The notes: generated by a model from the letters alone, not told the origin. DNA of 47,244 nucleotides from an uncultured bacterium (GCA_964639605.1 CAZXEF010000001.1:1-47244); one strand, 5' to 3'; shown: positions 5,296 through 20,160, numbered from the stretch's first letter. A program made the numbers and translations.

Positions 5296-5467
5296 CGCCG
5301 ATATGCACACTGTGTCTGACGCTTTCGAGATAGGGGAAGAATTGGAGTTGAAGGGTAAGGTTTTTGTGCTGCATGCTATACGCAAAAAACAAATAGTATT
5401 GAAACTAGCCCCATTACATAGACAACCAAACAACAAGGAGGAGCATTTTGAGGATAGGCAAATTTAA
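5285..5467 (+). CDS. hypothetical protein
   Basis: 60-aa ORF with a GGGGAGGAGGA RBS. Confidence 0.45.
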   Translation: MKNSADMHTVSDAFEIGEELELKGKVFVLHAIRKKQIVLKLAPLHRQPNNKEEHFEDRQI

Positions 5468-7010: not shown

Positions 7011-7039
7011 TTGGCAAGGAGCGCCCGACGTGGTATAAT
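7011..7039 (+). promoter_or_regulatory. sigma70-type promoter with extended -10
   Basis: TTGGCA (7011-7016), a 17-nt spacer, then TGgTATAAT (TATAAT at 7034-7039). It sits in the gap after the PurZ-like stop. Confidence 0.6.
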
Positions 7040-7145
7040 GAAATTTTGGTGGGGGGCGGTCCCCTGCCTTGCCTTGGGTGAAGGCAGCATTCCCGGACTG
7101 AGTGGCGGGAGTGCTGCCCAAATTATGACAATAGGGAGGAAACGA

Positions 7146-7928
7146 ATGGAGGATAAACTAGTAGCCGACCCCAGTAACATCGGCATGGGAGTAACTGTAT
7201 ACAATAGATATCTGTTTGCCGTTCCTGTCAAGGGGATAATAACTAATACAAACGATGCTCTAAGCTGTTATCAGGTAATTTTTTGGACAGATAATCCCGG
7301 AGGAAAGAATGTCAATAAGCACGATGGAGAATACTTCTTCGTCAGAGAATGTATTGTCGGCAGAGATCTCCGTGGAGCAGGGGCAACTGAGTATATAGAG
7401 AAAAGAATGAAGAAGCTGGTGGGTATATGGAAAGCCAAAGGGCTGAACGGACTACAAGCCGAGCGCTGGATTACAAAAGAACCTGATAAGACTAAGGAAG
7501 CAATGATGGTCAGGGTAGAGTGCGGAGCTTGTGGCTGGGCGATTGAGCGGCCAGTAGAGGAACACGCAAATCATCCGTTTATAGCATGCCCGTCCTGTGG
7601 GAACTCTGATATCAAGGAAACATTTCGTGCGGACAAAGAGTGGGATAGCCACGAACGGGACAGTCTTCAATCACTGCGTCCATACCGGTTCGATCTGATC
7701 GACCCCAAGGCTATGCTATGTCTGGCGGGTATCATGCACGACGGATTAAAGGACCATGAACCTGATGGCTGGCGGGAACTTCCGATAGAGGATCACCTCA
7801 ATCACGCCGTGGGCCACATAACAGCCTACCGGGCCGGGAACCGGGAGCTTGACCACTTGGGCAGGGCCTTTGCCCGGTTGATGATGGCTGTGGCCGAGGA
7901 GAAGGAAGATGGGACGGAAAATGGATAA
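7146..7928 (+). CDS. Two-domain protein: Zn-ribbon-containing N-domain plus DUF5664 / dATP-dGTP diphosphohydrolase-like (MazZ-like) C-domain
   Basis: ATG 7146 has an AGGGAGGA RBS. 'CGACGW..(21)..CPSCGN' looks like a zinc ribbon. The C-terminus 'RPYRFDLIDPKAMLCLAGIMHDGLKDHEPDGWRELP..HLNHAVGHITAYRAGN..LDHLGRAFARLMM' fits the PR(F/W)DLIP...A..RH..A...G...HL pattern I recall for that family. Confidence 0.55.
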   Translation: MEDKLVADPSNIGMGVTVYNRYLFAVPVKGIITNTNDALSCYQVIFWTDNPGGKNVNKHDGEYFFVRECIVGRDLRGAGATEYIEKRMKKLVGIWKAKGLNGLQAERWITKEPDKTKEAMMVRVECGACGWAIERPVEEHANHPFIACPSCGNSDIKETFRADKEWDSHERDSLQSLRPYRFDLIDPKAMLCLAGIMHDGLKDHEPDGWRELPIEDHLNHAVGHITAYRAGNRELDHLGRAFARLMMAVAEEKEDGTENG

Positions 7929-8437: not shown

Positions 8438-8848
8438 GTGACAAAGAAAAAAGCATCACTCAAACCCACAGTCCAGTGGGACGAAAAGACTATGACGGAA
8501 GTGGCTGTCAAGAAGGGGTTCAAGGATTTCGAGGCCGACCTGCTCAAGGGAATACAGCTCCGGGCCAAGGTCAAGGCCCTCAAGGGCGAGGTTGAGGGGT
8601 TGGAGGATCAGGCGAAAGCCCTGCTGGAGCCTGCGTTCACATTGCTGAAGACAACCCGGATAGGCACTAACGGGCTGGGCGTCCTGTCGTGGAGGAACGG
8701 ATCTTCCCCCGCGCGGGTTGATGGGGTGAAGGTGATAGAGAATCTGGTAACTGCAGGCGTAGACCCGACCGTGGCGCGCAAGGCAGTTGATGACGCCACG
8801 ACTCCCGGCACTCCGTATAAGTATTTTCAATTGACCAATAAAGGATAG
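8438..8848 (+). CDS. hypothetical protein
   Basis: GTG start with an AAGGAGGA RBS 6 nt upstream. 136 aa with a coiled-coil-like centre. Confidence 0.6.
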   Translation: MTKKKASLKPTVQWDEKTMTEVAVKKGFKDFEADLLKGIQLRAKVKALKGEVEGLEDQAKALLEPAFTLLKTTRIGTNGLGVLSWRNGSSPARVDGVKVIENLVTAGVDPTVARKAVDDATTPGTPYKYFQLTNKG

Positions 8849-8860
8849 GGGGAAAAGATT

Positions 8861-9748
8861 ATGAAATGTTTTTATCACTCAGCGGACTTGGACGGTCATT
8901 GTTCTGGAGCAATAATTAAAATGGCATTTCCTGAATGCGATATGATAGGGATCAATTATGGAGACGAATTTCCATGGGACGATATAGGGCCTGATGAATT
9001 AATCTTTATGGTTGATTTTTCCATTCAACCTTTTGAAGGAATGTTGAGGTTAAATCAATCCTGTGGAACGTTGATCTGGATAGATCACCACATATCAGCG
9101 ATTAAAGAATCTGAAGTTTACGGAAATAAATTCTATGGATTACAAAGGGATGGTATAGGAGCCTGTGCCTTAACATGGGAATATACATGGGAATATCTTA
9201 AATCCCTGGGGCATTTTTACACTGAAGATTTTCAAAATATTTCATCCGAAAGTGATCTCCCCACTTTTATAAAGCTTCTCGCTGAGTATGACGTGTGGAA
9301 CCATTCCGACCCAAGAACTCTTTCGTTCCAATACGGGATGAGACAGCAGCCCAATACATGGCCGGATAATCAGGATTTTTGGAACTCCTTATTTGATGTG
9401 GAAGAGGTCCAGAGAATTACCGAAATTGGCGGAACAATACTAAAATATCAATTAGCCGAAAATGAAAAATACTGTTCTGCCTGCGCCTTCGAAACAGAGC
9501 TGGATGGTCTGAAATGTATCGCAATCAATAAGATGCTCACCAACTCGCAGCTATTTAATTCTGTTTGGGACAGCCAAAAATATGATGCCATGCTTACTTT
9601 TGGGTGGCGTAAGGGAAAATGGACAGTATCCCTATATTCCGACAGGGATGATATTGATGTTTCGTCAGTGGCGAAGAAACATGGTGGGGGTGGGCATAAG
9701 GGGGCAGCCGGGTTTCAGTGCGAGTATTTACCATTCAATCTGACTTAG
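8861..9748 (+). CDS. DHH/DHHA1-family phosphoesterase (NrnA/RecJ-like fold)
   Basis: Motifs 'HSADLDGHCS', 'MVDFS', 'WIDHHIS' and the C-terminal 'HGGGGHKGAAGF'. The gene is visibly more AT-rich than its neighbours. Confidence 0.8.
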   Translation: MKCFYHSADLDGHCSGAIIKMAFPECDMIGINYGDEFPWDDIGPDELIFMVDFSIQPFEGMLRLNQSCGTLIWIDHHISAIKESEVYGNKFYGLQRDGIGACALTWEYTWEYLKSLGHFYTEDFQNISSESDLPTFIKLLAEYDVWNHSDPRTLSFQYGMRQQPNTWPDNQDFWNSLFDVEEVQRITEIGGTILKYQLAENEKYCSACAFETELDGLKCIAINKMLTNSQLFNSVWDSQKYDAMLTFGWRKGKWTVSLYSDRDDIDVSSVAKKHGGGGHKGAAGFQCEYLPFNLT

Positions 9749-9769
9749 CCTCGACATTGCCAGAAAGTA

Positions 9770-9785
9770 GGGGCCGAAAGGCCCC
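9770..9785. terminator. GC hairpin between convergent genes (bidirectional terminator candidate)
   Basis: GGGGCC-GAAA-GGCCCC lies between the + gene ending at 9748 and the - gene ending at 9791. Confidence 0.55.
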
Positions 9786-9790
9786 CACCC

Positions 9791-10324
9791 TCACATATCG
9801 TCTGGTATTGATCCTTTGGTTTTGTAGCGCCAAACTCGCATATATTCTCTGCGCCATTCCTTATTCTTCTTGCGGTATTCAGCCGCGCGCTTCTTCTTCT
9901 TAATATCACTGACCTCAGAGTCGAACCTGTCCCAGTTCATGTTCTGTAATCTCTGGGCCACGCTGTCCAATTCCCGGCGCAGAATGTCCTTCAGTATTGC
10001 TAGATCAACCTCATCCAGCGCGGATACCGGGCAAGGCCCGCACACAAACAGCCTGTCTAGGTCTGAATTTTCAACTATCCCGAACGGGACTCCCTCTGCA
10101 AGCATGTTCCACGCGCGAAGCCCGGCACACTGGTTAGCAACACATCCATACTTGGTAAGTCTGGCATTAAAACCCTCGCAGCGGAACAGGGTATTCAAGT
10201 CCCATTCGTCCCACTGCTCAAGGGTAGTAGGGCCGTCGCTATTCTGCGGCTGCGCTGCTTGGGGCAAGACTAGCGGCCTTTTTCTTGCCCTTCTTTCCTC
10301 CTCCACCTGTTCCGGCGGAGCCAC
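9791..10324 (-). CDS. hypothetical Cys-rich protein with a basic C-terminus
   Basis: 177-aa ORF with several Cys (CEGF..C..C..CGPC) and a KKKKRAAEYRKKNKEWRR tail. The start is uncertain because the ATG at 10324 overlaps the upstream gene by 86 nt. Confidence 0.55.
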   Translation of the reverse strand: MAPPEQVEEERRARKRPLVLPQAAQPQNSDGPTTLEQWDEWDLNTLFRCEGFNARLTKYGCVANQCAGLRAWNMLAEGVPFGIVENSDLDRLFVCGPCPVSALDEVDLAILKDILRRELDSVAQRLQNMNWDRFDSEVSDIKKKKRAAEYRKKNKEWRREYMRVWRYKTKGSIPDDM

Positions 10325-10796
10325 TTTTATTGTTGGCCGTCTTTTTTCCCTTCGGTTTGAGCTTGGGCGCGGGCTTGGGAGCAGACTTGGTAAGCTCCTT
10401 TCCCAGCTTGGCGCGGGCCTCGTCCATCACCTTATCGAAACACTCAGTGATTTTAATGGCGTCGGCATCGCCCTGCTTAACGTCGTGGACCAGACCTGCA
10501 GCCTGCTTGAGATCGAAGTAGGTCAACTGGTGCTCACTGTGAGACACGCTCCGTGAGGCCCTGATCATAAGGTTCATAAGCAGGGAATTGGCCATTCCTC
10601 GCTTGGCCATCGGTATTCCGGACAGGTCAAATCTCAGAGTGTCGCTGTCCGCGCCCGCATTCTCGATTGTGATTCCGAGCCTGCCCAGTTCGCGGGTACA
10701 GCGCGCGAACAGTACGTCTGCGTTAGTGGTTTTGGTGATGCTGATAACTTTACCAGCGCTGTCATTCTTTTTTAAAGTCGGTTCTACGTTTGCCAT
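10239..10796 (-). CDS. hypothetical protein with a Lys/Gly-rich tail
   Basis: Start taken at MANVEPT (ATG 10796) behind a GAGGAGAAAGGAAG RBS. The C-terminus is KPKGKKTANNKSG..GGGGKKGKKK. Confidence 0.55.
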   Translation of the reverse strand: MANVEPTLKKNDSAGKVISITKTTNADVLFARCTRELGRLGITIENAGADSDTLRFDLSGIPMAKRGMANSLLMNLMIRASRSVSHSEHQLTYFDLKQAAGLVHDVKQGDADAIKITECFDKVMDEARAKLGKELTKSAPKPAPKLKPKGKKTANNKSGSAGTGGGGKKGKKKAASLAPSSAAAE

Positions 10797-10902
10797 AGAA
10801 AAGCTTCCTTTCTCCTCTGTTGAGGACTTAAAATGTTGATACATACCAGACCTGCCGAATTAGAGCAGGCCCGGTTAAATAGGTGAATAGTAGATACAGA
10901 TC

Positions 10903-11118
10903 CTATCCTCCTTTCTTATTGGGATACTTGTAGACATTCAGCCCAATAATTACGCCCGGAATAGCTGTTCCTTCGACAGCCTTGTTTCCGCACGTGCTGG
11001 CGATCTTTATAGTTTTGCCAGACGCGCTTTTCCCGAACTCCTTATTGAGGTCCACCATTATGGTCAAAATTTCGCCCTGCTCGACCATATAGTCAACGTT
11101 GTCTCCTACTAATGGCAT
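10903..11118 (-). CDS. hypothetical protein
   Basis: 71 aa with a GGAGGCGGAG RBS. It overlaps the upstream gene end. Confidence 0.55.
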   Translation of the reverse strand: MPLVGDNVDYMVEQGEILTIMVDLNKEFGKSASGKTIKIASTCGNKAVEGTAIPGVIIGLNVYKYPNKKGG

Positions 11119-11606
11119 GTTTCTCCGCCTCCTTTCTCTCCCATTTCCATAAGCTCGATGATCTTTTCTTTCATCTCTTCGGGCATCCCTTCGGGCAGAT
11201 CATCGATGTTGTCAACTATTTTTACAGAAGGGCCAAAGCCCCCGCCGAGTCCTGCTGCTTCCATGGCTTCTCTCCTGACGGCAGCCATAACAACCATATG
11301 GACCAGAAGGTGGATTAGTTTGCCGAACGCCTCTTCCTTGGTAGTGACCTTTCTACCCTCTGGGCAGACAGCGAACACTGAACACTCTTTGCAGTTTTCG
11401 AGGTATATTTCGGATACCTCCTCCAGAGCGTCGTACAGGATTTTTGGGAAAGTCAGGTTAGTGAAAACGGTAGTATGCTCATCCTTGTCCTCGCCCTTTG
11501 TCATCGCTTCCATTTCGTTTTTCAGGGCTGAGAGGCTCAGAGCACGGACCAGCGCCTCGCCGATTTCCGGCCTTTCTAATAACTCATTAACGTATTTTTT
11601 AGACAT
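11109..11606 (-). CDS. hypothetical acidic protein
   Basis: 165 aa with a GCGGAGGAAAC RBS, directly downstream of a sigma70-like promoter. Confidence 0.6.
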   Translation of the reverse strand: MSKKYVNELLERPEIGEALVRALSLSALKNEMEAMTKGEDKDEHTTVFTNLTFPKILYDALEEVSEIYLENCKECSVFAVCPEGRKVTTKEEAFGKLIHLLVHMVVMAAVRREAMEAAGLGGGFGPSVKIVDNIDDLPEGMPEEMKEKIIELMEMGEKGGGETCH

Positions 11607-11627
11607 GTTTCCTCCGCAGAAAGTTAA

Positions 11628-11656
11628 ATTTTATCATGTAGGAGCAGCCTTGTCAA
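11628..11656 (-). promoter_or_regulatory. sigma70-type promoter with extended -10 (leftward)
   Basis: The minus strand reads TTGACA, a 17-nt spacer, then TGaTAAAAT. The -10 ends about 20 nt before the ATG at 11606. Confidence 0.6.
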
Positions 11657-11678
11657 GTACCCACTCCAGCCCCAGCCT

Positions 11679-11807
11679 TTAGTCTCTATCACCCCCTTTT
11701 GTAGTGTTTTCGTCTTTCACCAGCCCGCACCGGACGTCTTCTTCATACATCCTCTGGGCATGGTATTTAGCAAGTTCTTTACTCTGGCCGTCGACCACAG
11801 CGCACAT
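11679..11807 (-). CDS. possible 42-aa protein
   Basis: MCAVVDGQSKELAKYHAQRMYEEDVRCGLVKDENTTKGGDRD fills the 11607-11893 gap. The RBS is weak and it is below the ORF-track cut-off. Confidence 0.25.
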   Translation of the reverse strand: MCAVVDGQSKELAKYHAQRMYEEDVRCGLVKDENTTKGGDRD

Positions 11808-11893
11808 TCCAACGATCGGATGAACGAAACGCGGGTATACGGCCCACCGACAATCACCTGAGCCTCGGCCTCAGCCTATTTCGTAGCGTGAAT

Positions 11894-12268
11894 TCATTCT
11901 TCTAGCTCTACCTCCAACAGTCCCTGCAGGAACATCAGTTCCTTGTTGGCCAGTTCCCGGCACTCTCCGCACTCGGCCCAGTAAGGAATAGCACGCCCGT
12001 GAGCACATACCTGATGGTCTCTCCATTCTTCCCACGGCGATCCTACGCATCCTTCCATGCCGGTATACTCAAACACAGGACATCGATTCTTCCGACTATT
12101 AGCCCCGCAGTCCCAGCCATAGTGCTGGCATAGTTCGCAGTCCCAGCTACAGTGCTGGCACAGTTCGCAATTATCCGACATATTATCACAGCCCAGCCCA
12201 ACAGCAATCTTACTCCATTTCTGTACGGACAGCCGCAATAACTCTATCCTTTCTTTCCTCGATGTCAT
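11894..12268 (-). CDS. Cys-rich (metal-binding-like) hypothetical protein
   Basis: 124 aa with a GGGAGGA RBS and an ATGA overlap with the upstream gene. It contains the duplicated 'CELCQH(C/Y)(S/G)WDC' unit. Confidence 0.65.
   Translation of the reverse strand: MTSRKERIELLRLSVQKWSKIAVGLGCDNMSDNCELCQHCSWDCELCQHYGWDCGANSRKNRCPVFEYTGMEGCVGSPWEEWRDHQVCAHGRAIPYWAECGECRELANKELMFLQGLLEVELEE
12107..12166 (-). repeat. 30-bp tandem duplication inside the Cys-rich gene
   Basis: 12107-12136 and 12137-12166 match at 27 of 30 positions (gcagtcccagcYaYagtgctggcaYagttc). The two copies encode the two CELCQHxxWD units. Confidence 0.85.
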
Positions 12269-12513
12269 TCCTCCCTCGCTTTCTGCAGACGCTTCTCTGC
12301 CTTAATACGGTTCCTTTCCATCTGCCGACGTCGGCGCTCCTTCTCCTTGTTTCCCTGATGGTGCACGCGCGCAACCACTTTAACCTTGGGCGCGGGTGCT
12401 GGCCTCGGCTCAATGTCTGGCCGGATTATCGGGACAGTGGTTAGCCCCATCCTCAGCGCCTCGCCCATGTTGCGCACCACCAAAATCCTTCCGCTCTTCT
12501 CTCTGTCATCCAT
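12265..12513 (-). CDS. hypothetical protein with a basic C-terminus
   Basis: 82 aa with an AGGAGG RBS 9 nt upstream. It is the first gene after sigma54 promoter A. Confidence 0.6.
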   Translation of the reverse strand: MDDREKSGRILVVRNMGEALRMGLTTVPIIRPDIEPRPAPAPKVKVVARVHHQGNKEKERRRRQMERNRIKAEKRLQKAREE

Positions 12514-12539
12514 GTATCAAAACCTCCTACCTAAAAGAA

Positions 12540-12556
12540 ATGCAAGTTCCGTGCCA
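12540..12556 (-). promoter_or_regulatory. sigma54 (-24/-12) promoter A
   Basis: The minus strand reads TGGCACGGAACTTGCAT, an exact match to TGGCAC-N5-TTGCW. It is intergenic, and the predicted +1 near 12530 is about 17 nt before the ATG at 12513. Confidence 0.75.
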
Positions 12557-12569
12557 TAACCCATTTCAA

Positions 12570-12598
12570 CGAAGGCCCGCGTCGGACGGGCACCTTCG
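12570..12598. repeat. conserved GC-rich hairpin, copy A
   Basis: cgaaggcccgcgtcggacgggcaccttcg. It shares the CCCG(C)GTCSGACG(C)GGG core with copies at 13944, 15272, 16425 and 16530. Confidence 0.6.
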
Positions 12599-12627
12599 GC
12601 TCTGCCATTAACGCTAATTGCTGCAGG

Positions 12628-12667
12628 TGTGGTTCCCTTGCCACATTGGTGTGGTTCCGGTACCACA
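12628..12667. promoter_or_regulatory. paired 18-bp palindromes, enhancer/UAS candidate for promoter A
   Basis: TGTGGTTCCCTTGCCACA (12628-12645) and TGTGGTTCCGGTACCACA (12650-12667), with centres 22 bp apart. Confidence 0.6.
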
Positions 12668-12671
12668 TATC

Positions 12672-13292
12672 TCATCCACAAAAGGTTCCTATATAAACAC
12701 CGTCGTGAATTCCCGGCCAAGACAGCATTGGAATACGCGGTGCGCTCTCATCCACTTCAAAATTTCCACAAAAATATTCAGTGGCTGTACACCCGAACAT
12801 TTCCCCTATGTATATGACTGGGCCTCCCCAATGCCTGCATGCAGCCTCGAAGGAAGGATTGTCATACGGGGGCCACGATGCCAGCAGTATGTCTGCCCAA
12901 TCCCCGAACCTTCTAACTGCCTTGATAGCAGATGCTCTTTCTACTTCATGCACCAGTTTCATACGGTTGTGCTTCCAGCTAGATTCGAAATTGTCAGTGG
13001 CCTTTATATTAACCCCAAATTCGGACAGGGCCTTAGCAATCCAGCCCCGGCCCGCCATAATTTCAAGAACTCGTTTTCCGCCGATAAATTCTGATAGCAC
13101 CTTGGTCCAGTTCAGATCGACTATGCACCATGCTCCTAGATCATTAGCTTTATAGCGATACTTCATGTTATCCGAATAATGGCTAATTCTCCCTCCCCAA
13201 GTAGCGATCTCCGGCGGAAGCGGGGGAACTACACCAAGCCTCAAGTGGGCCACGTATTTACGATCACTTATCCTATTTATTCCATCCTTCAT
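12672..13292 (-). CDS. class I SAM-dependent methyltransferase (substrate unknown, possibly DNA)
   Basis: 'KRVLEIMAGRGWIAKALSEFG' looks like SAM-binding motif I. The later 'LLASWPPYDN' loosely resembles the (D/N/S)PP(Y/F) motif IV. Confidence 0.6.
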   Translation of the reverse strand: MKDGINRISDRKYVAHLRLGVVPPLPPEIATWGGRISHYSDNMKYRYKANDLGAWCIVDLNWTKVLSEFIGGKRVLEIMAGRGWIAKALSEFGVNIKATDNFESSWKHNRMKLVHEVERASAIKAVRRFGDWADILLASWPPYDNPSFEAACRHWGGPVIYIGEMFGCTATEYFCGNFEVDESAPRIPMLSWPGIHDGVYIGTFCG

Positions 13293-13488
13293 TTATGGCT
13301 ATCTCCCTTGTTACATTGAAATCGTTGTCGCATTCACGCCCGGCCCGGAAGTCCTCTTCGGTGATATAACTGTCGCACTCACCTTCGGCCTTCAAGTCCT
13401 CGACATCGAAGTCCAGTTCGGTCCCGATCGTCCACATGTTTACCAGAACTCCATCCTCGTCCGTCAGTATCAGTTTGTACCGTGCCAT
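13273..13488 (-). CDS. hypothetical acidic protein
   Basis: Start trimmed to MARYKLIL (ATG 13488) behind an AGGAGAG RBS, 10 nt after the upstream stop. Confidence 0.55.
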   Translation of the reverse strand: MARYKLILTDEDGVLVNMWTIGTELDFDVEDLKAEGECDSYITEEDFRAGRECDNDFNVTREIAINEGWNK

Positions 13489-13498
13489 AACATCTCTC

Positions 13499-13927
13499 CT
13501 ATTCCAGCACCTCGACTGCCTCGAAGGCCACAACACTGGGTTTAATCGCGTAAACACCGGGACTGCTGCCCTTGTAAATTTCGCCGTCGGAATTATAGTC
13601 AAGGTAGAGTCTATCTATTGAAGCATTGACCCGCCAGAAAATCGCTGGACTGTAAGTCGGGGAGCCTACTCCTCGAACCGACACTATCTTAGCCATGTCG
13701 TCTAACCTGTACTGCCCAATGAAATGCTCGGCAGCGTTCGTGTCGACGAAACAGAGAATGCCCACCGAATCCGGAACAGCCTTCACTATTTTTCCCTTAG
13801 GATAGCGCGGGTAATACCGAATAATTTCGCGGGCAATACTGCGCCTGTCAATCTTTCTGTTCCTCGTCTGTATTAGCCAGTTGCTACAGTCCCTTTTCTT
13901 CTTCCCTACTACCTTGTATGCTATCAC
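13499..13927 (-). CDS. hypothetical protein
   Basis: GTG start at 13927 with an AAGGAG RBS. 142 aa. Confidence 0.55.
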   Translation of the reverse strand: MIAYKVVGKKKRDCSNWLIQTRNRKIDRRSIAREIIRYYPRYPKGKIVKAVPDSVGILCFVDTNAAEHFIGQYRLDDMAKIVSVRGVGSPTYSPAIFWRVNASIDRLYLDYNSDGEIYKGSSPGVYAIKPSVVAFEAVEVLE

Positions 13928-13943
13928 TTGTTAATCTCCTTTC

Positions 13944-13966
13944 GAGGCCCGCGTCCGACGGACCTC
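13944..13966. repeat. conserved GC-rich hairpin, copy D (intercistronic)
   Basis: gaggcccgcgtccgacggacctc forms an 8-bp stem with a 7-nt loop. It lies exactly between the stop at 13967 and the next RBS. Confidence 0.6.
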
Positions 13967-14167
13967 TCATTCTGCGCTTACAGTGCTTACGTGCCAGCAA
14001 TACACCTCGTCATAATTACAAGCGTCATAGGATTCAGGCCCGTGCTTCGAAATCACTCTCCGCTTGTCCTCTCCCTGCAATTCGCGCTGTTTAGTATAGG
14101 CCTTGGCCAGATCGTCTAATACTACTGCCTTAGGCTCATTGTTACAAAATATGATGTGTGCTTTCAT
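13967..14167 (-). CDS. hypothetical protein
   Basis: 66 aa with an ATGA overlap with the upstream gene. Confidence 0.55.
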   Translation of the reverse strand: MKAHIIFCNNEPKAVVLDDLAKAYTKQRELQGEDKRRVISKHGPESYDACNYDEVYCWHVSTVSAE

Positions 14168-14835
14168 CGCTCATCCCCCTTCCCTACCCTGTCTATAAGC
14201 CTACTTGATAGTGATGCAATGTCCTGCATCCTGATGTTCGGTGAGTTTCTTTCTGAGACAGTAGCTAGCTTATTGATCTTGTGCAATCCTGTCAGCAAGT
14301 CGTTGGTAAACATTTCTCCTGTCTCCCTTTCTGCCATGGAATAGGGTGCAAGGTTTCCGTCTTCCTCAAACTCAAACTCATTGACCCTGATCGTCTCGAT
14401 TACGGCTTCACGGCTCAGTAGATATTCCCACTCACCCTTTAGCATGTAGAAATAGCATCGGTTAATGGCTCGCAAAAACTCTACATCGATGTCGCTAAAA
14501 TCAGGGTCCTCGTCTGTGGGTGTTTCACCCTTCCGCGCCGTATACCTCTCCTTGAAGAGCAATGCTGTTTTGTAGGTCTCTGTTTCCTTGCCATGCTCCG
14601 CGAGTATAGCATCAACAGTGTCAATACCTGACTTCACAAAATTGGCATACAGCGTGAACCTGTTAAGGTCAAACTCGTCGATTATAAGGTGGATATTCTT
14701 AGCGTCCTCATACACTGTGTCCCACCATCCATGCCCGATGTTGATGTATGAATGATCGCGGATTGCCTCTTCCTGCGCGTCCTCGGTGAGGTCGTCGAAA
14801 TTATAAAGTGTCTTTGTTATAGTAATCATCCTCAT
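14164..14835 (-). CDS. hypothetical, strongly acidic protein
   Basis: 223 aa with a TAAAGGAGGAAAA RBS. It is D/E-rich throughout. Confidence 0.65.
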   Translation of the reverse strand: MRMITITKTLYNFDDLTEDAQEEAIRDHSYINIGHGWWDTVYEDAKNIHLIIDEFDLNRFTLYANFVKSGIDTVDAILAEHGKETETYKTALLFKERYTARKGETPTDEDPDFSDIDVEFLRAINRCYFYMLKGEWEYLLSREAVIETIRVNEFEFEEDGNLAPYSMAERETGEMFTNDLLTGLHKINKLATVSERNSPNIRMQDIASLSSRLIDRVGKGDER

Positions 14836-14998
14836 AGTTTTCCTCCTTTACTGGACTGGTAATTCTGTCTAGTGAACGTTTATCGTGCCAAACGTAGTCC
14901 CTGCACCTGTCGCACCAATACCACGCTCCGGGTCCAGTGCTGTGGTCAAGAAACGCTTGGCATCCACAATGGGGGCATTGAATGCTAGCGCATATCAC
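14801..14998 (-). CDS. small Zn-ribbon protein
   Basis: GTG start. 'CPHCGC...(17)...CDRCRDY' provides two CxxC pairs. Confidence 0.55.
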   Translation of the reverse strand: MICASIQCPHCGCQAFLDHSTGPGAWYWCDRCRDYVWHDKRSLDRITSPVKEENYEDDYYNKDTL

Positions 14999-15128
14999 GG
15001 TTTCTCCCCCTTTCCCGGCACCTCTGGATGTTCCGCTTGGTGATTCTCTCGAAATTGCAGAACACTAAGACTAGCGCAATCAGCGCCAGCAGGTCCATTC
15101 CGATAAATGCAAACAACAGTGATTTCAT
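14985..15128 (-). CDS. 47-aa single-pass membrane protein
   Basis: MKSLLFAFIGMDLLALIALVLVFCNFERITKRNIQRCRERGRNRDMR with an AAGGAGG RBS 7 nt upstream. It is below the ORF-track cut-off and I found it by reading the strand. Confidence 0.5.
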   Translation of the reverse strand: MKSLLFAFIGMDLLALIALVLVFCNFERITKRNIQRCRERGRNRDMR

Positions 15129-15187
15129 GGCGTCACCTCCTTAATAGTACGTCGAGAGTGGCCGGGCTTTCCCCGGCCTGTCGACAT
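15125..15187 (-). CDS. possible 20-aa leader peptide, translationally coupled
   Basis: MSTGRGKPGHSRRTIKEVTP with a GGGAGGA RBS. Its TGA overlaps the ATG of the membrane-protein gene (ATGA). The ORF spans a GGCCGGG-GAAA-GCCCGGCC hairpin. Confidence 0.25.
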   Translation of the reverse strand: MSTGRGKPGHSRRTIKEVTP

Positions 15188-15242
15188 GACATCCTCCCGA
15201 ACATGGGTTGATATTGGGCCATCGGCCCTATACCTAAAAGAA

Positions 15243-15259
15243 ATGCAAGGCGCGTGCCA
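15243..15259 (-). promoter_or_regulatory. sigma54 (-24/-12) promoter B
   Basis: The minus strand reads TGGCACGCGCCTTGCAT. It has the same downstream context as copy A (TTGCATTTCTTTTAGGTA). Intergenic. Confidence 0.75.
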
Positions 15260-15271
15260 CAACGGATTAAA

Positions 15272-15302
15272 GCGAAGACCCGCGTCCGTCGCGGGCTTTC
15301 GC
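15272..15302. repeat. conserved GC-rich hairpin, copy B
   Basis: gcgaagacccgcgtccgtcgcgggctttcgc forms a stem of about 13 bp. It lies between the UAS pair and promoter B, as in copy A. Confidence 0.6.
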
Positions 15303-15329
15303 CTCTTCAGTTACCGTTTGTGCTATGAT

Positions 15330-15370
15330 TGTGGTTCTCCCGCCACATCCGGTGTGGTCCCCTCGCCACA
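15330..15370. promoter_or_regulatory. paired 18-bp palindromes, enhancer/UAS candidate for promoter B
   Basis: TGTGGTTCTCCCGCCACA (15330-15347) and TGTGGTCCCCTCGCCACA (15353-15370), with centres 23 bp apart. Confidence 0.6.
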
Positions 15371-15437
15371 TCCCTGCTTGGGCCATGGTTTCTTCCTGTG
15401 GTCCGGTTTCGGCCCCGGACCCCGGCCCTTGATTGGT

Positions 15438-16313
15438 TTAGTGGAAAAGTCTCCTGACGCGCCCCATCATCCTCTGCTGGACTACCTGATTCTCGATCCG
15501 GTGCGTGATGAACTGGGTAACGATGTTGTAGAAAGCCCACAAGGTTATCGCCTGCAGTTTCTGGTCCTCAAGCCGGACCCCGGATGAGACCTCGACCTCG
15601 CGGTGAAGGTCCTCGGTCTGTGTCTTGTTGAGCTTGAGTCCGGTGACGATGTTCTCGTATTCGGCTAGTGTGGTCACCCGGTCAACCCACTTTTCCCAGA
15701 TGCCAACCTGATCACTGAATCGCTTCATCCCGACGATGATCATTGCTTTCATGTCGTGGGTGCCATCCATCGGCTGGTGATGTTCGCGACGGTATTCGAT
15801 CTCCTTCGTGCCGACCGTCATCCCATTACTGCATATTATCCGGTATGCCCCGAAGATCGCCCGGAGCGCGATCGATCCATCAAGGCTATTGAAAGCATCA
15901 AAGCTTGGTGCGATTCCGCGCCCGCCGTCGGTGTCTCCCGCGACGGTCATTGCCGCCTCCGGGAATGTGTACTGCAGTCTCATTTTCGCACCGTCCTGCG
16001 GGAGCCATACCCGGCGTTCCGGCTTGCCGTATTCGGTCATTTCGTCCACGACGCTTTCGGCCATTTCGATCACCTGCTCGTGTCGGATGAGCTGGTAATC
16101 GTCGGTGACGATACTGAAGACTTCCTCGGTCTCCGGGTTGATCAGAGCCTTCTGGCCCTTGATTTCGATCCGGCGCCTGCTGGTGTCATCCCCGAAGTAG
16201 ACCGGACGCTCTTCGACCTTCGGAATTGCCTTCAGGGCAGACTCGACGCTCATTCCGCGCCCGGCCACCTTGCCTGTCATCCTTGCTTCTGTTGCTAATG
16301 CGTTTGCTGTCAT
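15438..16313 (-). CDS. DUF932-family protein
   Basis: Start trimmed to MTANALATE (ATG 16313) behind an AAGGAGGAAAC RBS. 'LRAIFGAYRIICSNGMTVG' resembles the R..C.NG core of DUF932. Confidence 0.6.
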   Translation of the reverse strand: MTANALATEARMTGKVAGRGMSVESALKAIPKVEERPVYFGDDTSRRRIEIKGQKALINPETEEVFSIVTDDYQLIRHEQVIEMAESVVDEMTEYGKPERRVWLPQDGAKMRLQYTFPEAAMTVAGDTDGGRGIAPSFDAFNSLDGSIALRAIFGAYRIICSNGMTVGTKEIEYRREHHQPMDGTHDMKAMIIVGMKRFSDQVGIWEKWVDRVTTLAEYENIVTGLKLNKTQTEDLHREVEVSSGVRLEDQKLQAITLWAFYNIVTQFITHRIENQVVQQRMMGRVRRLFH

Positions 16314-16384
16314 GTCGTTTCCTCCTTGCTGGCCGGGTTCAGGCCCGGCGCCCCGAGTGGCACCCCGCCACCCACCTTTAAAAA

Positions 16385-16401
16385 ATGCAAGCCTCGTGCC
16401 A
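16385..16401 (-). promoter_or_regulatory. sigma54 (-24/-12) promoter C
   Basis: The minus strand reads TGGCACGAGGCTTGCAT. The predicted +1 near 16375 is about 62 nt before the ATG at 16313. Confidence 0.75.
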
Positions 16402-16475
16402 GCCCGAACGGACGTTCGGTATATCCGTCGGACGCGGGCCTTGGGCGCTGGGTCCGGGTTCGACAATTCCTCAAT

Positions 16476-16511
16476 TGTGGTTCCGGGACCACAATGTGGC
16501 GAGGAGACACA
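16476..16511. promoter_or_regulatory. paired palindromes, enhancer/UAS candidate for promoter C
   Basis: TGTGGTTCCGGGACCACA (16476-16493, arms extend to ATTGTGGT/ACCACAAT) and the degenerate TGTGGCGAGGAGACACA (16495-16511). Confidence 0.55.
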
Positions 16512-16529
16512 TTTATAGCTCAAGCCCCG

Positions 16530-16555
16530 GAAAGCCCCGTCGGACGCGGGCCTTC
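16530..16555. repeat. conserved GC-rich hairpin, copy C2 (a related core, C1, lies at 16425-16440)
   Basis: gaaagccccgtcggacgcgggccttc has the same core in inverted orientation relative to copies A and D. Confidence 0.5.
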
Positions 16556-16635
16556 GCTGGTACCCAAATGGCAAGTGGGTTATGACCTTCGGGAGAGTGT
16601 GGTCCCGGCGCTACAGTGGGGGTATGGAGATGGTG

Positions 16636-16670
16636 TACAAAGGGTGTAAGTGGGATATACAAAGGGTGTA
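16636..16670 (+). promoter_or_regulatory. two 13-bp direct repeats (operator candidate) upstream of the rightward late block
   Basis: TACAAAGGGTGTA occurs at 16636-16648 and 16658-16670, a 22-bp period. Each overlaps a TGTACA half-palindrome. Confidence 0.45.
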
Positions 16671-16708
16671 CATCGGTTTATGCGTGGCATTTTCGGGAAG
16701 GTTCAGGT

Positions 16709-17197
16709 ATGGAGAAAAGGGAGAGACAAGAACTATTTCTGGTCATACTCAGGGCCAATGCTGGCAACATAAGTAGCGCCTGTCATGCGACGAGTATCAG
16801 CCGGTCGACCTATAACAAGTGGAGGAACGGCGATGAATGGTTCGCGGAGGCGCTAGCAGAGGTGCAAGAGTTCGTGGTTGATTTCGCGGAAAGTAAGCTG
16901 ATGGAAAACATCAGCGCCAACAGTTCCAGAGACATACATTTCTTCCTCAGCGCAAGGGGCAGGCATCGCGGATACGGTTCCGGGCGGGGTATCGGCGACG
17001 ACGACATGGCGCCACAATTGGCGTCTCCAACATACCCGCCAGAGCACGCATCGTTGGCGGACTGGGAGGCCGATGTCCGGCGCGCCAAAAACGCTCATCA
17101 AGGTTCGGACGCGGGGGGTTCGGCGGGGGGTCAGCCTAGACTATTATCGCGAAGGGCCGGTAAGGACGGGCATCCGGACGGTAACTACAGCAACTAG
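16709..17197 (+). CDS. HTH protein, terminase small subunit-like
   Basis: Start trimmed to MEKRERQELF. 'FLVILRANAGNISSACHATSISRSTYNKWRNGDEWFAEALAEVQE' fits the N-terminal HTH pattern common in small terminases. Confidence 0.45.
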   Translation: MEKRERQELFLVILRANAGNISSACHATSISRSTYNKWRNGDEWFAEALAEVQEFVVDFAESKLMENISANSSRDIHFFLSARGRHRGYGSGRGIGDDDMAPQLASPTYPPEHASLADWEADVRRAKNAHQGSDAGGSAGGQPRLLSRRAGKDGHPDGNYSN

Positions 17198-17421
17198 CGC
17201 GGGGTATCTCGATGAATCCACAAAAAAACAAAAACCAAATCCGATATTCCCTAGGGAGGGAAGGGGGGTATGCGGCAAGGAGAGGCCAAATCCGGAAGAT
17301 TGGGTGGATATTATTGTCCAATATATCCTCCGCTATAATTAGGTATCTGGAGCGGGGGTTTCGTCGGGGTTTCCAAGGACCGCGACGGCATGGCAAGACA
17401 GTTAACAATTATGAAGGGGGG

Positions 17422-17451
17422 TTGACGAGGGTACGCCTCGCATGGTATAAT
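17422..17451 (+). promoter_or_regulatory. sigma70-type promoter with extended -10
   Basis: TTGACG (17422-17427), an 18-nt spacer, then TGgTATAAT (TATAAT at 17446-17451). It sits in the 420-nt gap. Confidence 0.6.
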
Positions 17452-17620
17452 CAAAGAGTCCAGCTTTTGGGGCCTATTTTTTCCCCCGAAACAAGCTCCG
17501 AAGGAGGCAGAGCGCGGGTAATTGAAGGGATGGCGCGAAGCGCCAGCGCAAAAATTAACCGTCGGGCTGGCTCCGGTCCGCAGGGGCACTCAGTACTTTC
17601 CAATAGCAAGGGAGTATGAT

Positions 17621-17758
17621 ATGACAATCAGATCAGTTGGCGGAGATAAATTCGTCGTACTCAGCAAAAAAGGAAAACGCCTGTCGAAGCCCCTTTCCAA
17701 AAAGGGCGCGAAGAAAAGGCTTAGGCAGGTTGAATATTTCAGCCGCCACAAAAAATAG
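17621..17758 (+). CDS. 45-aa highly basic protein
   Basis: MTIRSVGGDKFVVLSKKGKRLSKPLSKKGAKKRLRQVEYFSRHKK with an AGGGAG RBS. I trimmed the start of ORF 17522..17758 to it. Confidence 0.5.
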   Translation: MTIRSVGGDKFVVLSKKGKRLSKPLSKKGAKKRLRQVEYFSRHKK

Positions 17759-17804
17759 TATTTTGTGGGGTTGAGAAGATACACAAAAATAACACAAGGA
17801 GGGT

Positions 17805-18119
17805 ATGGAAATGTTAATCGCAACATACATGCAGGACCCGGAAATAACATTGGGGGAAGTGGCTGACAGGCAGCCATCGGACGGGGTTGGGCAGTTATGC
17901 TTCGTGGTGATGGACTTGGAGGCACCGCACAAGGCAATAGTTCAGCACGGCGCGAAGGCAATGGCAGAACTAGGAAGGGATGTTCACATGGTGGTGTCAG
18001 CACCTTGGGGGCAGCTCAAAAAAGCACTGGAGAAGGCCGAGAAAGAGGTTGAAGATCTGAAAGGCAAGCTCGCGAGTGCAAAAAAAGAAATAAAAACACT
18101 TAAAGAGGCCAGTAAATAG
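17805..18119 (+). CDS. hypothetical protein with a coiled-coil C-terminus
   Basis: 104 aa with an AAGGAGGG RBS. Confidence 0.55.
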   Translation: MEMLIATYMQDPEITLGEVADRQPSDGVGQLCFVVMDLEAPHKAIVQHGAKAMAELGRDVHMVVSAPWGQLKKALEKAEKEVEDLKGKLASAKKEIKTLKEASK

Positions 18120-18331
18120 TGGCTGGAATAACCAAAGAGCATATTGGAAATAGCATACAACTGTATTTTCGGGGGGGCAGCGCCGAGGGAATATATGCTC
18201 GCGCCGGGGAGAAAGAGGATCTATCGTACCTGTCAATATATGCCCCGACAAAAGAAGCCATATTAAAGGTGTGTGATGACCTCATCGAGTCAATTGAAGA
18301 ACGTAAAAGACAGTTAACCGAAGGAGAATGA
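18119..18331 (+). CDS. hypothetical protein
   Basis: GTG start abutting the upstream stop. Its own stop overlaps the TerL start. Confidence 0.45.
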   Translation: MAGITKEHIGNSIQLYFRGGSAEGIYARAGEKEDLSYLSIYAPTKEAILKVCDDLIESIEERKRQLTEGE

Positions 18332-19893
18332 TGCCATACTGGACCCCGCAAATAGGACCTCAGGCTGCGGCAGCGACGTGCCCCGCCGACGAAACCTTCT
18401 ATGGTGGAACAAGAGGTGGAGGCAAGAGCGATACCGCGATAGGGCGCCAAGTGCGCGGGGCCGAGAGGTATGGGCCGCACTGGAATGGATTATTCATACG
18501 ACGTAAGTACAAGGACTTGGCCGAGGTCCGTAGGAGATTTGATGAGCTGATAGCTCAGGGAATGCCCGCGATACGGGTCGGAGGAGAGAATCAGACAAAC
18601 TATGTCAGGTTTACGGATGGCCCCGCCACAGGAGCTGTGATAGTTCTGGCGGCTATCCTTAAGCTTGAGATGGCAGATGCATTTCAGGGGCACCAGTACA
18701 CGGAAATTACCATCGATGAGGCCCCGACGATACCTTTCATAGGGCAGTTGATAGACCGGATGAAGGGGTGTTTAAGGTCCCCACATGGGGTGCCGTGCCG
18801 GATGTTCCTGACCGGGAACCCCGGAGGATCGGGCGCTTCGCAGGCCAAACAGATGTATATACCAGAAGTAGATGGCGGGATGAGTCCCGTGGGCGACAGC
18901 GAAATATACAAGCTGGACGACGGAACTACTAGGGTATTCATTCGATCCACCGTGTATGACAACGCAATTCTGTGCGATAACGACCCAAAATATGTGCAGA
19001 GGCTGCAGTCTATTAAGGACCCCGTTCTGCGCAAGGCTTGGCTGGACGGAAGATGGGATGTATTCATCGGGCAGGCCTTCAACTTCACCGAAAGGCATAT
19101 CATCGACCCGATATGGCCTATACCGGAATTTGTGCCACTATACATGACATTCGACTGGGGCTTCGGAGCGCCGTTCCACATAGGATGGTGGTGGGTTGAT
19201 CAGTACAATCGACTGGTGCTGTTCGCTGAGTGGTATGGGTGCGAAAAGGGAAAGGCCAATGTAGGACTTAGGCTGGAAGACCCGAAAATCGCCGAGGGGA
19301 TACTTGAGCGCGAACAGAAAATGGGGATACTGGGGCGCAACATCAAGCGTCTGGTAGGGCATGATAGTTTCAACAAAAAGCCGGACTACAAGGGCGGAGG
19401 ACAGGGGGATTCTACAGCGGATGAATTTATAGCCTACGCATCCAGACCGGAAGTAATTGAAAAGTATGGCAGCAAGATAAACCTGAATTTGCTTCCGGGA
19501 GACCCCAACCGAGAATTGAAGATCAGGCAATTCAGAAACCGGCTGATGCTGCCGGACGACCCCGACGAGAGACCTATGCTGGTGGTGTACAGGACATGCA
19601 AGGATTTCATCAGAATAATACCGGACCTATGCACAGACGAGCTCACAGGAGAATACTTGGAGAATGGGCAGGAGCTGCATCCATTCGACAGCGCGTGCCA
19701 TATATGCATGGACAGGCCGGTGGGGCTGGACGAGATGAAAATAGCAAGGGAGCGCGAGGAACGGCGTCTGGAGCAGATCAGATCGCAGCTTGACGCCCCG
19801 TCTAGGGCAGCCGCAGACGAATTTGCGAAGATGGTTCAGGACCTGAAGGAGAAATCCGAGGAAAGGTTCGACGTTGGAATTTTCATGAACTAG
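18328..19893 (+). CDS. terL: terminase large subunit
   Basis: Walker A 'GGTRGGGKSD' and Walker B 'TEITIDEAP'. It is 521 aa and lies just upstream of the portal-size gene. Confidence 0.85.
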   Translation: MMPYWTPQIGPQAAAATCPADETFYGGTRGGGKSDTAIGRQVRGAERYGPHWNGLFIRRKYKDLAEVRRRFDELIAQGMPAIRVGGENQTNYVRFTDGPATGAVIVLAAILKLEMADAFQGHQYTEITIDEAPTIPFIGQLIDRMKGCLRSPHGVPCRMFLTGNPGGSGASQAKQMYIPEVDGGMSPVGDSEIYKLDDGTTRVFIRSTVYDNAILCDNDPKYVQRLQSIKDPVLRKAWLDGRWDVFIGQAFNFTERHIIDPIWPIPEFVPLYMTFDWGFGAPFHIGWWWVDQYNRLVLFAEWYGCEKGKANVGLRLEDPKIAEGILEREQKMGILGRNIKRLVGHDSFNKKPDYKGGGQGDSTADEFIAYASRPEVIEKYGSKINLNLLPGDPNRELKIRQFRNRLMLPDDPDERPMLVVYRTCKDFIRIIPDLCTDELTGEYLENGQELHPFDSACHICMDRPVGLDEMKIAREREERRLEQIRSQLDAPSRAAADEFAKMVQDLKEKSEERFDVGIFMN

Positions 19894-19902
19894 GGAGGAA
19901 AT

Positions 19903-20160
19903 ATGGAATATATTACTGGATTTCTTTTTGTGGTAGTGCTGGTGCTGCTGGCAATTATTGACAGGGAGCGCCGGGCATTCAGCAAAAAAGAGGAACGTTT
20001 CATTAACCGTATAATGGCCAAGGATTTAGAGGAATTTCGCAGGGTTACGGAAAGCATGGAAAAAACCCACGCCGATGTTATCAGGGAGATGGAGAAGGAA
20101 AATGAGCTGTATGAGAACATGGAGAAGAACACACGGCGCGGATTCAGGCTAACAGGATAA
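19903..20160 (+). CDS. hypothetical protein with an N-terminal TM helix
   Basis: 'ITGFLFVVVLVLLAII' is followed by a charged tail. There is an AGGGAGGA RBS. Confidence 0.55.
   Translation: MEYITGFLFVVVLVLLAIIDRERRAFSKKEERFINRIMAKDLEEFRRVTESMEKTHADVIREMEKENELYENMEKNTRRGFRLTG

Follow-up and report, generated by a model that had tools for sequence, protein, structure and literature searches.

Predicted sigma-54 promoters with tandem upstream palindromes in the leftward gene block of an uncultured phage

The leftward block and its three -24/-12 elements

The 47,244-nt stretch analysed here (CAZXEF010000001.1:1-47244 of GCA_964639605.1, filed under an uncultured bacterium; hereafter the window) is part of a phage genome, and its minus strand carries three elements, A, B and C, that match the -24/-12 consensus of sigma-54 promoters. 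The rest of the genome was recovered from a 63,987-bp Logan contig of run SRR8557488, which encodes the DUF932 protein of the window. The contig ends overlap by 30 nt, yielding a 63,957-bp circular genome with a GC content of 50%, in which the window occupies positions 1-47244 after rotation. Besides SRR8557488, the phage is present in the sediment samples JGI 3300031364, 3300035136 and 3300042731. The minus-strand block at 9791-16313 is the only leftward block of this genome. The rightward genes begin with terS (16709 onward) and continue with TerL, the structural and lysis genes, small genes, the helicase, ThyX, the recombination genes, the DNA polymerase and PurZ, up to 9748. Most of the phage proteins remained without annotation in Pfam and PHROGs scans, and a Megablast search of 9000-20000 against GenBank phages retrieved no near-identical phage.

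The leftward block is composed of three putative transcription units, each preceded by one of the elements. Unit C (15438-16313, minus strand) consists of a single gene, encoding the 291-aa DUF932 protein. Unit B (12672-15229, minus strand) contains about eight small genes, including those for a 47-aa membrane peptide, a Cys-rich 65-aa protein, a 223-aa protein of phrog_5162 and a 206-aa protein of phrog_19090 that resembles S-adenosylmethionine-dependent methyltransferases. Unit A (9791-12513, minus strand) comprises about seven genes, several of whose products are Cys-rich or bear basic tails; most of these genes have homologues, at 47-60% identity, in the leftward block of L240, a related phage contig described below.

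In a consensus scan of the window, the core TGGCAC-N5-TTGCW was matched without mismatch exactly three times, always on the minus strand: at 12541-12556 (A, TGGCACGGAACTTGCA), 15244-15259 (B, TGGCACGCGCCTTGCA) and 16386-16401 (C, TGGCACGAGGCTTGCA). The chance expectation is 0.06 per window, and three or more matches were reached in 0 of 100 dinucleotide-preserving shuffles. The three sites have the extended core TGGCACG-N4-TTGCA in common, with the extra G and a C before TTGC at every site, and their GG and GC doublets are precisely 10 bp apart. When up to two mismatches were allowed, the window yielded 26 sites against 20.4 expected; thus, the three perfect sites stand on a chance background, with no weak or graded tail. 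The sole core with one mismatch (24423-24438, plus strand) is intragenic and lacks an upstream palindrome of the kind described below. A, B and C all lie between genes and point in the same direction as the next gene. Downstream of the core, A and B share TTGCATTTCTTTTAGGTA, and C has TTGCATTTTTTAAAGG. Element C is unchanged in a strain variant from another sample. A preliminary description of the window had reported the three exact-consensus sites, with the same sequences, their intergenic and gene-co-oriented placement and the shared downstream context; the sites and the context were recovered as described, and the mapped start codons agree with the placement. In the complete circle, too, A, B and C are the only strict sites.

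The start codons follow the elements at short distances. The 3' end of site A lies 27 nt from the ATG at 12513, with an AGGAGG ribosome-binding site in between, while that of site C lies 72 nt from the DUF932 ATG at 16313. Site B is followed after about 14 nt by a possible 20-codon open reading frame (ORF), or after about 113 nt by a 47-codon gene, two very short ORFs coming first. In sigma-54 promoters, the GC of the -12 element usually precedes the transcription start by about 12 nt; on this basis, the transcripts would begin near 12530 at A, just ahead of the AGGAGG and the ATG at 12513, near 15233 at B, and near 16375 at C, where the leader to the DUF932 ATG would span about 62 nt. Automatic gene calling placed a 52-codon ORF across promoter region A (12517-12675, minus strand) and a 133-codon plus-strand ORF (15186-15587) that runs antisense to the 3' end of DUF932 and to region B. 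The two calls are probably spurious genes that overlap regulatory DNA.

Upstream palindromes and their conservation

Upstream of each element we found tandem palindromes, overlooked in the preliminary description, which may serve as upstream activating sequences. The 18-bp palindrome TGTGG-N8-CCACA has five exact copies in the complete genome, and all five are located upstream of A, B and C; at up to one mismatch, the window contains 9 matches against 1.24 expected. At A, the putative proximal site occupies 12628-12645 (TGTGGCAAGGGAACCACA, in the minus-strand reading) and the distal site 12650-12667 (TGTGGTACCGGAACCACA), with their centres 82 and 104 bp from the GG of the -24 element. At B, the corresponding sites lie at 15330-15347 (TGTGGCGGGAGAACCACA, 81 bp) and 15353-15370 (TGTGGCGAGGGGACCACA, 104 bp). 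At C, the proximal site at 16476-16493 (TGTGGTCCCGGAACCACA, 85 bp) is accompanied by a degenerate distal 17-mer at 16495-16511 (TGTGTCTCCTCGCCACA, 103.5 bp). The gaps between the proximal palindrome and TGGCAC are 71 (A), 70 (B) and 74 nt (C). At all three elements the dyads are in tandem and fall within the range of 70-150 bp upstream that is expected of enhancers for bacterial enhancer-binding proteins (bEBPs, or EBPs). The core together with the tandem upstream dyads has the appearance of an enhancer-dependent sigma-54 promoter. Promoter C and terS diverge from an intergenic region that contains a one-mismatch palindrome, TGTGGTCCCGGCGCTACA, at 16598-16615; this may be a third site.

The spacing of the palindromes follows the pitch of the helix. 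Over 13 promoters, drawn from this clade and from an unrelated viral group of about 42% GC described below, the centre of the proximal palindrome lies 61, 61, 61 and 62 bp from the -24 GG in four promoters, 72 bp in five, and 81, 82, 83 and 85 bp in the other four. These clusters (61-62, 72 and 81-85 bp) are separated by steps of about one helical turn, as expected if an activator bound at the enhancer contacts the polymerase through a short DNA loop.

Between the putative upstream activating sequences and the -24 element lies a GC-rich element with the consensus CGAAGG-CCCG-TCCGAC-GCGGG-CCTTCG, which is found away from the promoters too. Its word GGCCCGCGTCCGACG is the most over-represented word of the genome besides the Shine-Dalgarno sequence, and is often completed to a 7-12-bp stem. 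Copies occur in both orientations and mostly between genes, at 12573, 13945, 15279, 16426, 16538 and 17103 in the window and at 57059 and 60404 elsewhere in the genome, and the element is also present in the relatives L240 and L105. The copy at promoter A spans 12570-12598 (minus strand, CGAAGGTGCCCGTCCGACGCGGGCCTTCG). The copy at promoter B (15271-15304, minus strand) folds with -27.6 kcal/mol (z = -3.7) and is followed by UUU; it is the only promoter copy with a strong terminator-like fold, and this copy and the intergenic one at 13945 are the only two that fold significantly above shuffled sequences. The hairpin probably terminates or insulates transcription from the upstream unit, often at terminator-promoter junctions, although this role is uncertain. 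The notion of a conserved RNA structure was dropped, since only these two copies beat the shuffles and the window contains no Rfam match.

Two related phage contigs carry the same arrangement. L105 (5.3 kb), retrieved by a search with the DUF932 protein, encodes a DUF932 protein 61% identical and a TerL fragment 85% identical to those of the window. Upstream of its DUF932 gene lie TGGCACGGCACTTGCA, the palindrome TGTGGTGCGCAGGCCACA, two more TGTG...CACA dyads and the GC-rich element. L240, a 61-kb contig obtained in the TerL search, encodes a TerL 81% identical to that of the window, and its genes follow the same order (PurZ, diphosphohydrolase, leftward block, terS, TerL). It contains three exact TGGCACG-N3-CTTGCA sites, and the two leftward ones are equipped with the hairpin and with tandem palindromes (8843-8860 and 8866-8883; 6329-6346 and 6351-6368). 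The block proteins of the window and L240 are 37-60% identical, and DUF932 is absent from L240. The promoters with their upstream palindromes retain 76-82% nucleotide identity, and are among the few stretches that can still be aligned at the DNA level.

In the alignment of the seven promoters from the three phages, the invariant columns are TGGCACG...CTTGCA, while the spacer triplet and the palindrome centres vary, a pattern that recognition by sigma-54 and by a dimeric DNA-binding protein would predict. Alternatively, the motif could be read by another factor, such as a phage sigma-like protein or a host factor of the sigma-70 family, or it could be the by-product of a duplicated intergenic repeat. 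The three regions of the window do share several modules, possibly as copies of one cassette, and the many phage proteins that lack annotation leave room for an unusual factor. However, the conserved and variable bases track the core and degenerate positions of sigma-54 promoters in all seven copies, and the spacers between the modules have diverged while the modules have not, which argues for selection on the modules rather than recent duplication. Moreover, the precomputed Pfam hits of the contig assign an RNA polymerase, sigma factor or RpoN domain to none of its genes, and chance is excluded by the counts given above. We therefore give this alternative hardly any weight, and take the seven copies as candidate sigma-54 promoters in what follows.

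The module is confined to a narrow sub-clade. The contig L241, whose TerL is 63% identical to that of the window, has the same synteny, including the divergent arrangement of the leftward block and terS; it contains neither a sigma-54 site nor the palindrome. At the equivalent position it has a sigma-70-like sequence, TTGACA-18-TAGCAT with an upstream TG, and sigma-70-like matches number four there against 1.3 expected. In 105 loci (875 kb) of more distant TerL relatives, loose sigma-54 matches were at chance level (2 unique, against about 1.7 expected). In L241, a different type of promoter thus stands in the place of the module. The intergenic region of L241 at 8976-9460 also contains a run of GAGACAGG repeats. 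A search of IMG/VR with the DUF932 protein returned no relatives. In the limited sequence at hand, the three phages with sigma-54 sites have only terS and TerL in common, and with only 5 kb of L105, phyletic profiling yielded no information on a gene specific to such phages.

The candidate activator and the alternatives

Sigma-54 promoters are silent until a signal-switched, ATP-driven activator acts on them. Neither the GAFTGA nor the GESGTGK signature of such activators was found in the six frames of the window or of the complete genome, in line with the preliminary description, which had seen no GAFTGA-type AAA+ protein in the window. The precomputed Pfam hits of the contig's called genes likewise contain no Sigma54_activat domain, and the Pfam and PHROGs scans revealed no regulator in the block, among the structural genes or among the small genes that lie outside the window. 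A hidden Markov model was built from four EBP AAA+/helix-turn-helix (HTH) regions and compared, with filters disabled, to all 602 ORFs that are 50 codons or longer; the best E-value was 1.1. Given that the complete genome encodes no canonical EBP, the host would be expected to supply the activator, barring an unprecedented solution on the part of the phage. The preliminary description had left two sources open, a gene elsewhere in the phage or a host protein, and had proposed a search of the remaining genome; the first source, as a canonical EBP, is now essentially excluded, and a host EBP is the likely activator.

The tandem palindrome recurs in other viruses. By itself, it was found in 24 viral contigs, against less than one estimated for a pattern of 20 specified bases. 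Six contigs of a lineage with about 42% GC (L220, L225, L229, L231, L232 and L238) and a further contig, L036, carry a sigma-54-type element 50-61 nt after the tandem palindrome (2536-2640 in L220; 6961-7069 in L036). The element has the form TGGTAT or TGGCAT-N5-TTGCA in the lineage of about 42% GC, and reads TGGCACTAGCCTTGCT in L036. The module precedes a gene for a protein of about 244 aa, with no EBP close by. A search of IMG/VR with the promoter pattern alone gave 28 single matches, none of them related to the phage, and these were taken as unrelated or chance occurrences.

Cellular genomes connect the palindrome with EBP genes. The composite pattern of palindrome and promoter, again with 20 specified bases, was run on 596 Gb of genomes and produced 67 matches against about 28 expected; most matches are therefore due to chance, and the analysis was restricted to loci in which the sites are in tandem or an EBP gene is adjacent. 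In four cellular loci (L102, L056, L080 and L082), the palindrome with its sigma-54 promoter adjoins an EBP gene whose product matches Sigma54_activat at E = 1e-58 to 1e-68 and contains HTH_8 or HTH_50. In L102, from a Binatia metagenome-assembled genome (MAG), and in L056, the site is located between the promoter and a divergent gene for an EBP of about 1430 aa (3440-7744 in L102; 3340-7623 in L056). In this large protein, Sigma54_activat (E = 2e-58) and HTH_8 occupy the N-terminal part, ahead of a STAND-type AAA_16 NTPase and MalT-like TPR repeats, and its gene diverges from a sigma-54 promoter with tandem TGTGGYCCAWGAACCACA sites. In L080 (a Desulforapulum autotrophicum MAG), a gene with PAS, Sigma54_activat and HTH_8 domains lies directly upstream of the site, and in L082 (Mailhella), an EBP gene lies upstream and a glycyl-radical enzyme gene downstream. 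L073 (Mailhella) has a tandem TGTGGC-N6-GCCACA ahead of lpxC, and a target of the lpxC type is listed for the EBP DVU2934 (PMC4641369). The same study describes three groups of EBP motifs composed of TGT and ACA half-sites with 9, 11 or 12 bp between them, and TGTGG-N8-CCACA, read as TGT-N12-ACA, matches one of these groups. Together, these loci support the assignment of the palindrome to a class of EBP sites. An extended half-site, GAACCACA, which the phage shares with L050, L056 and L102, was considered as a lead to a specific EBP; it was rejected as statistically weak and also because the high-GC, Binatia-like MAGs are a poor fit for a phage of 50% GC.

From the core motifs and their surroundings, A, B and C very probably function as sigma-54 promoters, as the preliminary description had proposed for the leftward block; the upstream palindromes, the conservation in two relatives and the helical phasing all back this reading. 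We also consider it probable, with somewhat less assurance, that these promoters are activated by a host EBP acting at the palindromes. In such a scheme, the host RNA polymerase with sigma-54 would form a closed complex on TGGCACG-N4-TTGCA, unable to open the DNA alone. A dimeric helix-turn-helix bEBP would occupy both TGTGG-N8-CCACA palindromes, about 82 and about 104 bp upstream of the -24 GG, and would assemble into an AAA+ ring. Looping of the DNA would bring this ring to the polymerase on the proper helical face, and the ring would open the promoter at the expense of ATP. The three promoters would transcribe the sole minus-strand block of the phage (9791-16313), as three units, and the GC hairpin between enhancer and promoter would stop or insulate transcription from the unit upstream. 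As the phage has no ATPase of this type, the bEBP would be that of the host, and the roughly 16 accessory genes would be gated by the signal to which that bEBP responds.

Several observations sit less easily with this scheme. The hairpin is strong at B alone among the promoters. Many EBPs use this class of palindrome, and no specific activator can be named; the sharing of GAACCACA with three MAG loci is not statistically compelling given the search pattern. Host inference from TerL relatives, tRNAs and homologues of TerL and ThyX pointed to no host: TerL relatives among isolated phages are at most 32% identical and come from many different hosts, the phage has no tRNA genes, and the TerL and ThyX homologues are almost all metagenomic proteins. 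If adenine is replaced by 2-aminoadenine in this genome, which carries a probable toolkit for that modification (see below), recognition by sigma-54 and the EBP would have to hold on modified DNA. Two further observations, concerning provirus-like contigs and a solitary site in L240, each bring a different explanation into play.

Seven provirus-like contigs have a tandem TGTGG-N8-CCACA with no sigma-54 site near, and the palindrome alone is therefore no proof of EBP binding. In these contigs it looks like an ordinary operator, and in the phage, too, the palindromes could be operators of a phage HTH regulator, acting as a repressor, an anti-activator or a tethering adaptor at genuine sigma-54 promoters. 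In that case the ATPase, for instance a host EBP lacking a DNA-binding domain, would work from solution or from another place. The near-palindrome at 16598-16615, in the region from which terS diverges, would be in keeping with a phage regulator that works in two directions, and the small protein predicted from the first gene after promoter A (12265-12513) seems to combine an HTH-like segment with a basic tail. However, neither Pfam nor PHROGs recognised a regulator in the block or elsewhere, and the set of genes common to the three phages, again within the limited sequence at hand, offers only terS and TerL. Furthermore, a tandem position about 80-105 bp upstream, varying in steps of one turn, suits looping activators and not repressors of -24/-12 promoters, and the same class of palindrome stands beside EBP genes at the four cellular loci. 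On balance, we regard a phage-encoded reader of the palindromes as unlikely, and retain a host EBP as the preferred one.

The solitary site, in L240 at 7255-7270 (plus strand), is an exact TGGCACGATTCTTGCA with the GC hairpin and without palindromes; it faces the 3' end of a minus-strand gene, and does not fit the simple scheme. The site might be a relic or the source of an antisense transcript. A site facing into a gene would also be in keeping with sites that bind the sigma-54 holoenzyme without firing, either as roadblocks or insulators between the units or as a means of sequestering the host sigma-54 polymerase. The holoenzyme binds DNA stably while inactive, and E. coli has many intragenic sites that are non-productive (PMC4591121); the absence of an activator of the phage's own would agree with such a role. 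Against it, A, B and C are placed as promoters should be, ahead of ribosome-binding sites and start codons. Units A-C showed no promoters of another class, and sigma-70-like matches in the block are at chance level. In addition, each of the three sites is provided with a phased putative enhancer, which a roadblock would not need. Silent binding of this kind thus appears very unlikely, and activated sigma-54 promoters remain our preferred reading of A, B and C.

Known sigma-54 systems and further features of the genome

The preliminary description had called a phage expression programme based on sigma-54 barely described. This is fair, but such programmes are not undescribed: the Pseudomonas aeruginosa phage YuA (Yuavirus, NC_010116) depends on sigma-54, a dependence tested by experiment (Ceyssens et al. 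2008, as cited in PMC10914365), whereas that of the present phage is predicted from its sequence. No other phage case was found in the literature searched. Like the present phage, YuA is tailed and encodes neither an RNA polymerase nor an EBP; it uses the host sigma-54 for part of its genes, as is predicted here. The work on YuA reportedly made use of an rpoN mutant. Both phages have three -24/-12 promoters, annotated in YuA and predicted here from sequence alone. The YuA sites lie in the structural and lysis region, whereas those described here serve the accessory block. They are also weak, as none of the form TGG[CT]A[CT]-N5-T[TC]GC[AT] was found in the 50 kb scanned, while all three sites of the present phage are perfect, and YuA has no annotated enhancer, in contrast to the tandem palindromes at each promoter here. 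The two phages share TerL at 27% and PolA at 22% identity and nothing else detectable, and the present phage does not belong to the Yuavirus lineage. The module is thus not a new mechanism, but a clearer instance of a known and rarely documented use of sigma-54 by phages.

Dyads upstream of sigma-54 promoters are familiar from cells, as in the NifA sites (TGT-N10-ACA), the NtrC sites at glnAp2 and the DctD sites at dctA. Another example is provided by the Desulfovibrio EBP regulons with TGT-N12-ACA sites (PMC4641369). Like the phage module, such cellular promoters combine a canonical -24/-12 core with two adjacent 18-bp dyads about 80-130 bp upstream and face-of-helix spacing. In cells, however, the EBP gene usually adjoins its target and the target is a metabolic operon; here, three promoters with the same enhancer serve a viral gene block, and the EBP gene is absent from the phage. 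A phage infection is also tied to a host EBP and sigma-54 in the psp response, in which PspF-activated sigma-54 promoters are induced by the filamentous-phage secretin pIV (PMC3068692, PMC3128695). The psp promoters belong to host genes reacting to a phage protein, whereas those described here are on the phage genome, and no evidence ties the palindromes to PspF.

If the promoters function as predicted, a gene block under sigma-54 control in a phage without its own activator would be conditional on the state of the host, and the virus would be reading host signalling. The clarity of the module, its conservation in relatives, the sigma-70-like sites that take its place in the more distant L241 and its repetition in an unrelated lineage suggest that the strategy is commoner in environmental phages than the literature shows. 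Promoter fragments of about 160 bp would provide a handle for finding the cognate EBP, and hence the host and the signal.

The phage carries a probable 2-aminoadenine (Z-genome) toolkit, encoded at 5448-7004, 7011-7928, 1906-4545 and 8861-9748 of the window. The toolkit consists of a PurZ-like homologue of adenylosuccinate synthetase, a protein carrying the dATP/dGTP diphosphohydrolase N-terminal domain, a fusion of a family A DNA polymerase with a UDG-superfamily domain, and a DHH-family protein. The best PDB matches of the PurZ-like protein are 7ODX, labelled PurZ, and 6FM1 and 6FKO, labelled adenylosuccinate synthetase, all at E of about 1e-26, as compared to only about 1e-10 for PurA entries of the E. 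coli type; we take 6FM1 and 6FKO to be the PurZ of phage phiVC8. An intein/HINT insertion occupies residues 207-345, approximately, of PurZ, and the 361-aa PurZ of L240 lacks it. The phage helicase (793 aa, Helicase_C_2; 18804-21185 in L030, about 56,050-58,430 in the genome) also contains an intein-splicing domain, and inteins are thus present in at least two replication or nucleotide-metabolism genes of the phage. If the genome truly contains 2-aminoadenine, the promoter fragments would be natural substrates for studying how sigma-54 and EBPs handle modified DNA.

More tentatively, a sub-clade of uncultivated sediment phages with this toolkit may have exchanged the sigma-70 promoters of the accessory leftward block for complete sigma-54 enhancer modules of the host type; about 16 genes would then be turned on only while one particular host EBP is active. 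The host EBP class might be a recurrent sensor through which phages follow the physiology or stress of the host. The idea of such a recurrent sensor, drawn from a widespread class of host EBPs, arises because unrelated viral lineages share the tandem palindrome, the sigma-54-type promoter and the helical phasing.

A further candidate system was seen in L106, a low-GC phage contig with a distant DUF932 homologue at 34% identity. Here, -24/-12-like sites of the TGGCAT type are located 35-50 nt upstream of three genes (768-783, 10021-10036 and about 4590), and one of them is preceded by five direct repeats (AAGCGAGCCA ... GAAACCCA; 9769-10020). L106 may represent another phage sigma-54 system with a different enhancer.

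For the plus-strand genes of the phage, a search for a second promoter class returned only the Shine-Dalgarno sequence and the GC hairpin as over-represented motifs, with sigma-70-like matches near chance. Within unit A, a strong sigma-70-like sequence, TTGACA-17-TAAAAT with an upstream TG, matches 11 of 12 positions at 11628-11656 (minus strand), just upstream of a gene for a 165-aa protein (11109-11606), and may act as an internal promoter that does not depend on sigma-54. The direct repeat TACAAAGGGTGTA occurs at 16636-16648 and 16658-16670, 22 bp apart, a short distance ahead of the terS ATG at 16709, and is otherwise unique in the genome except for one copy with two mismatches at 56830. 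This repeat could be a packaging (pac/terS) site or an operator of the rightward late operon.

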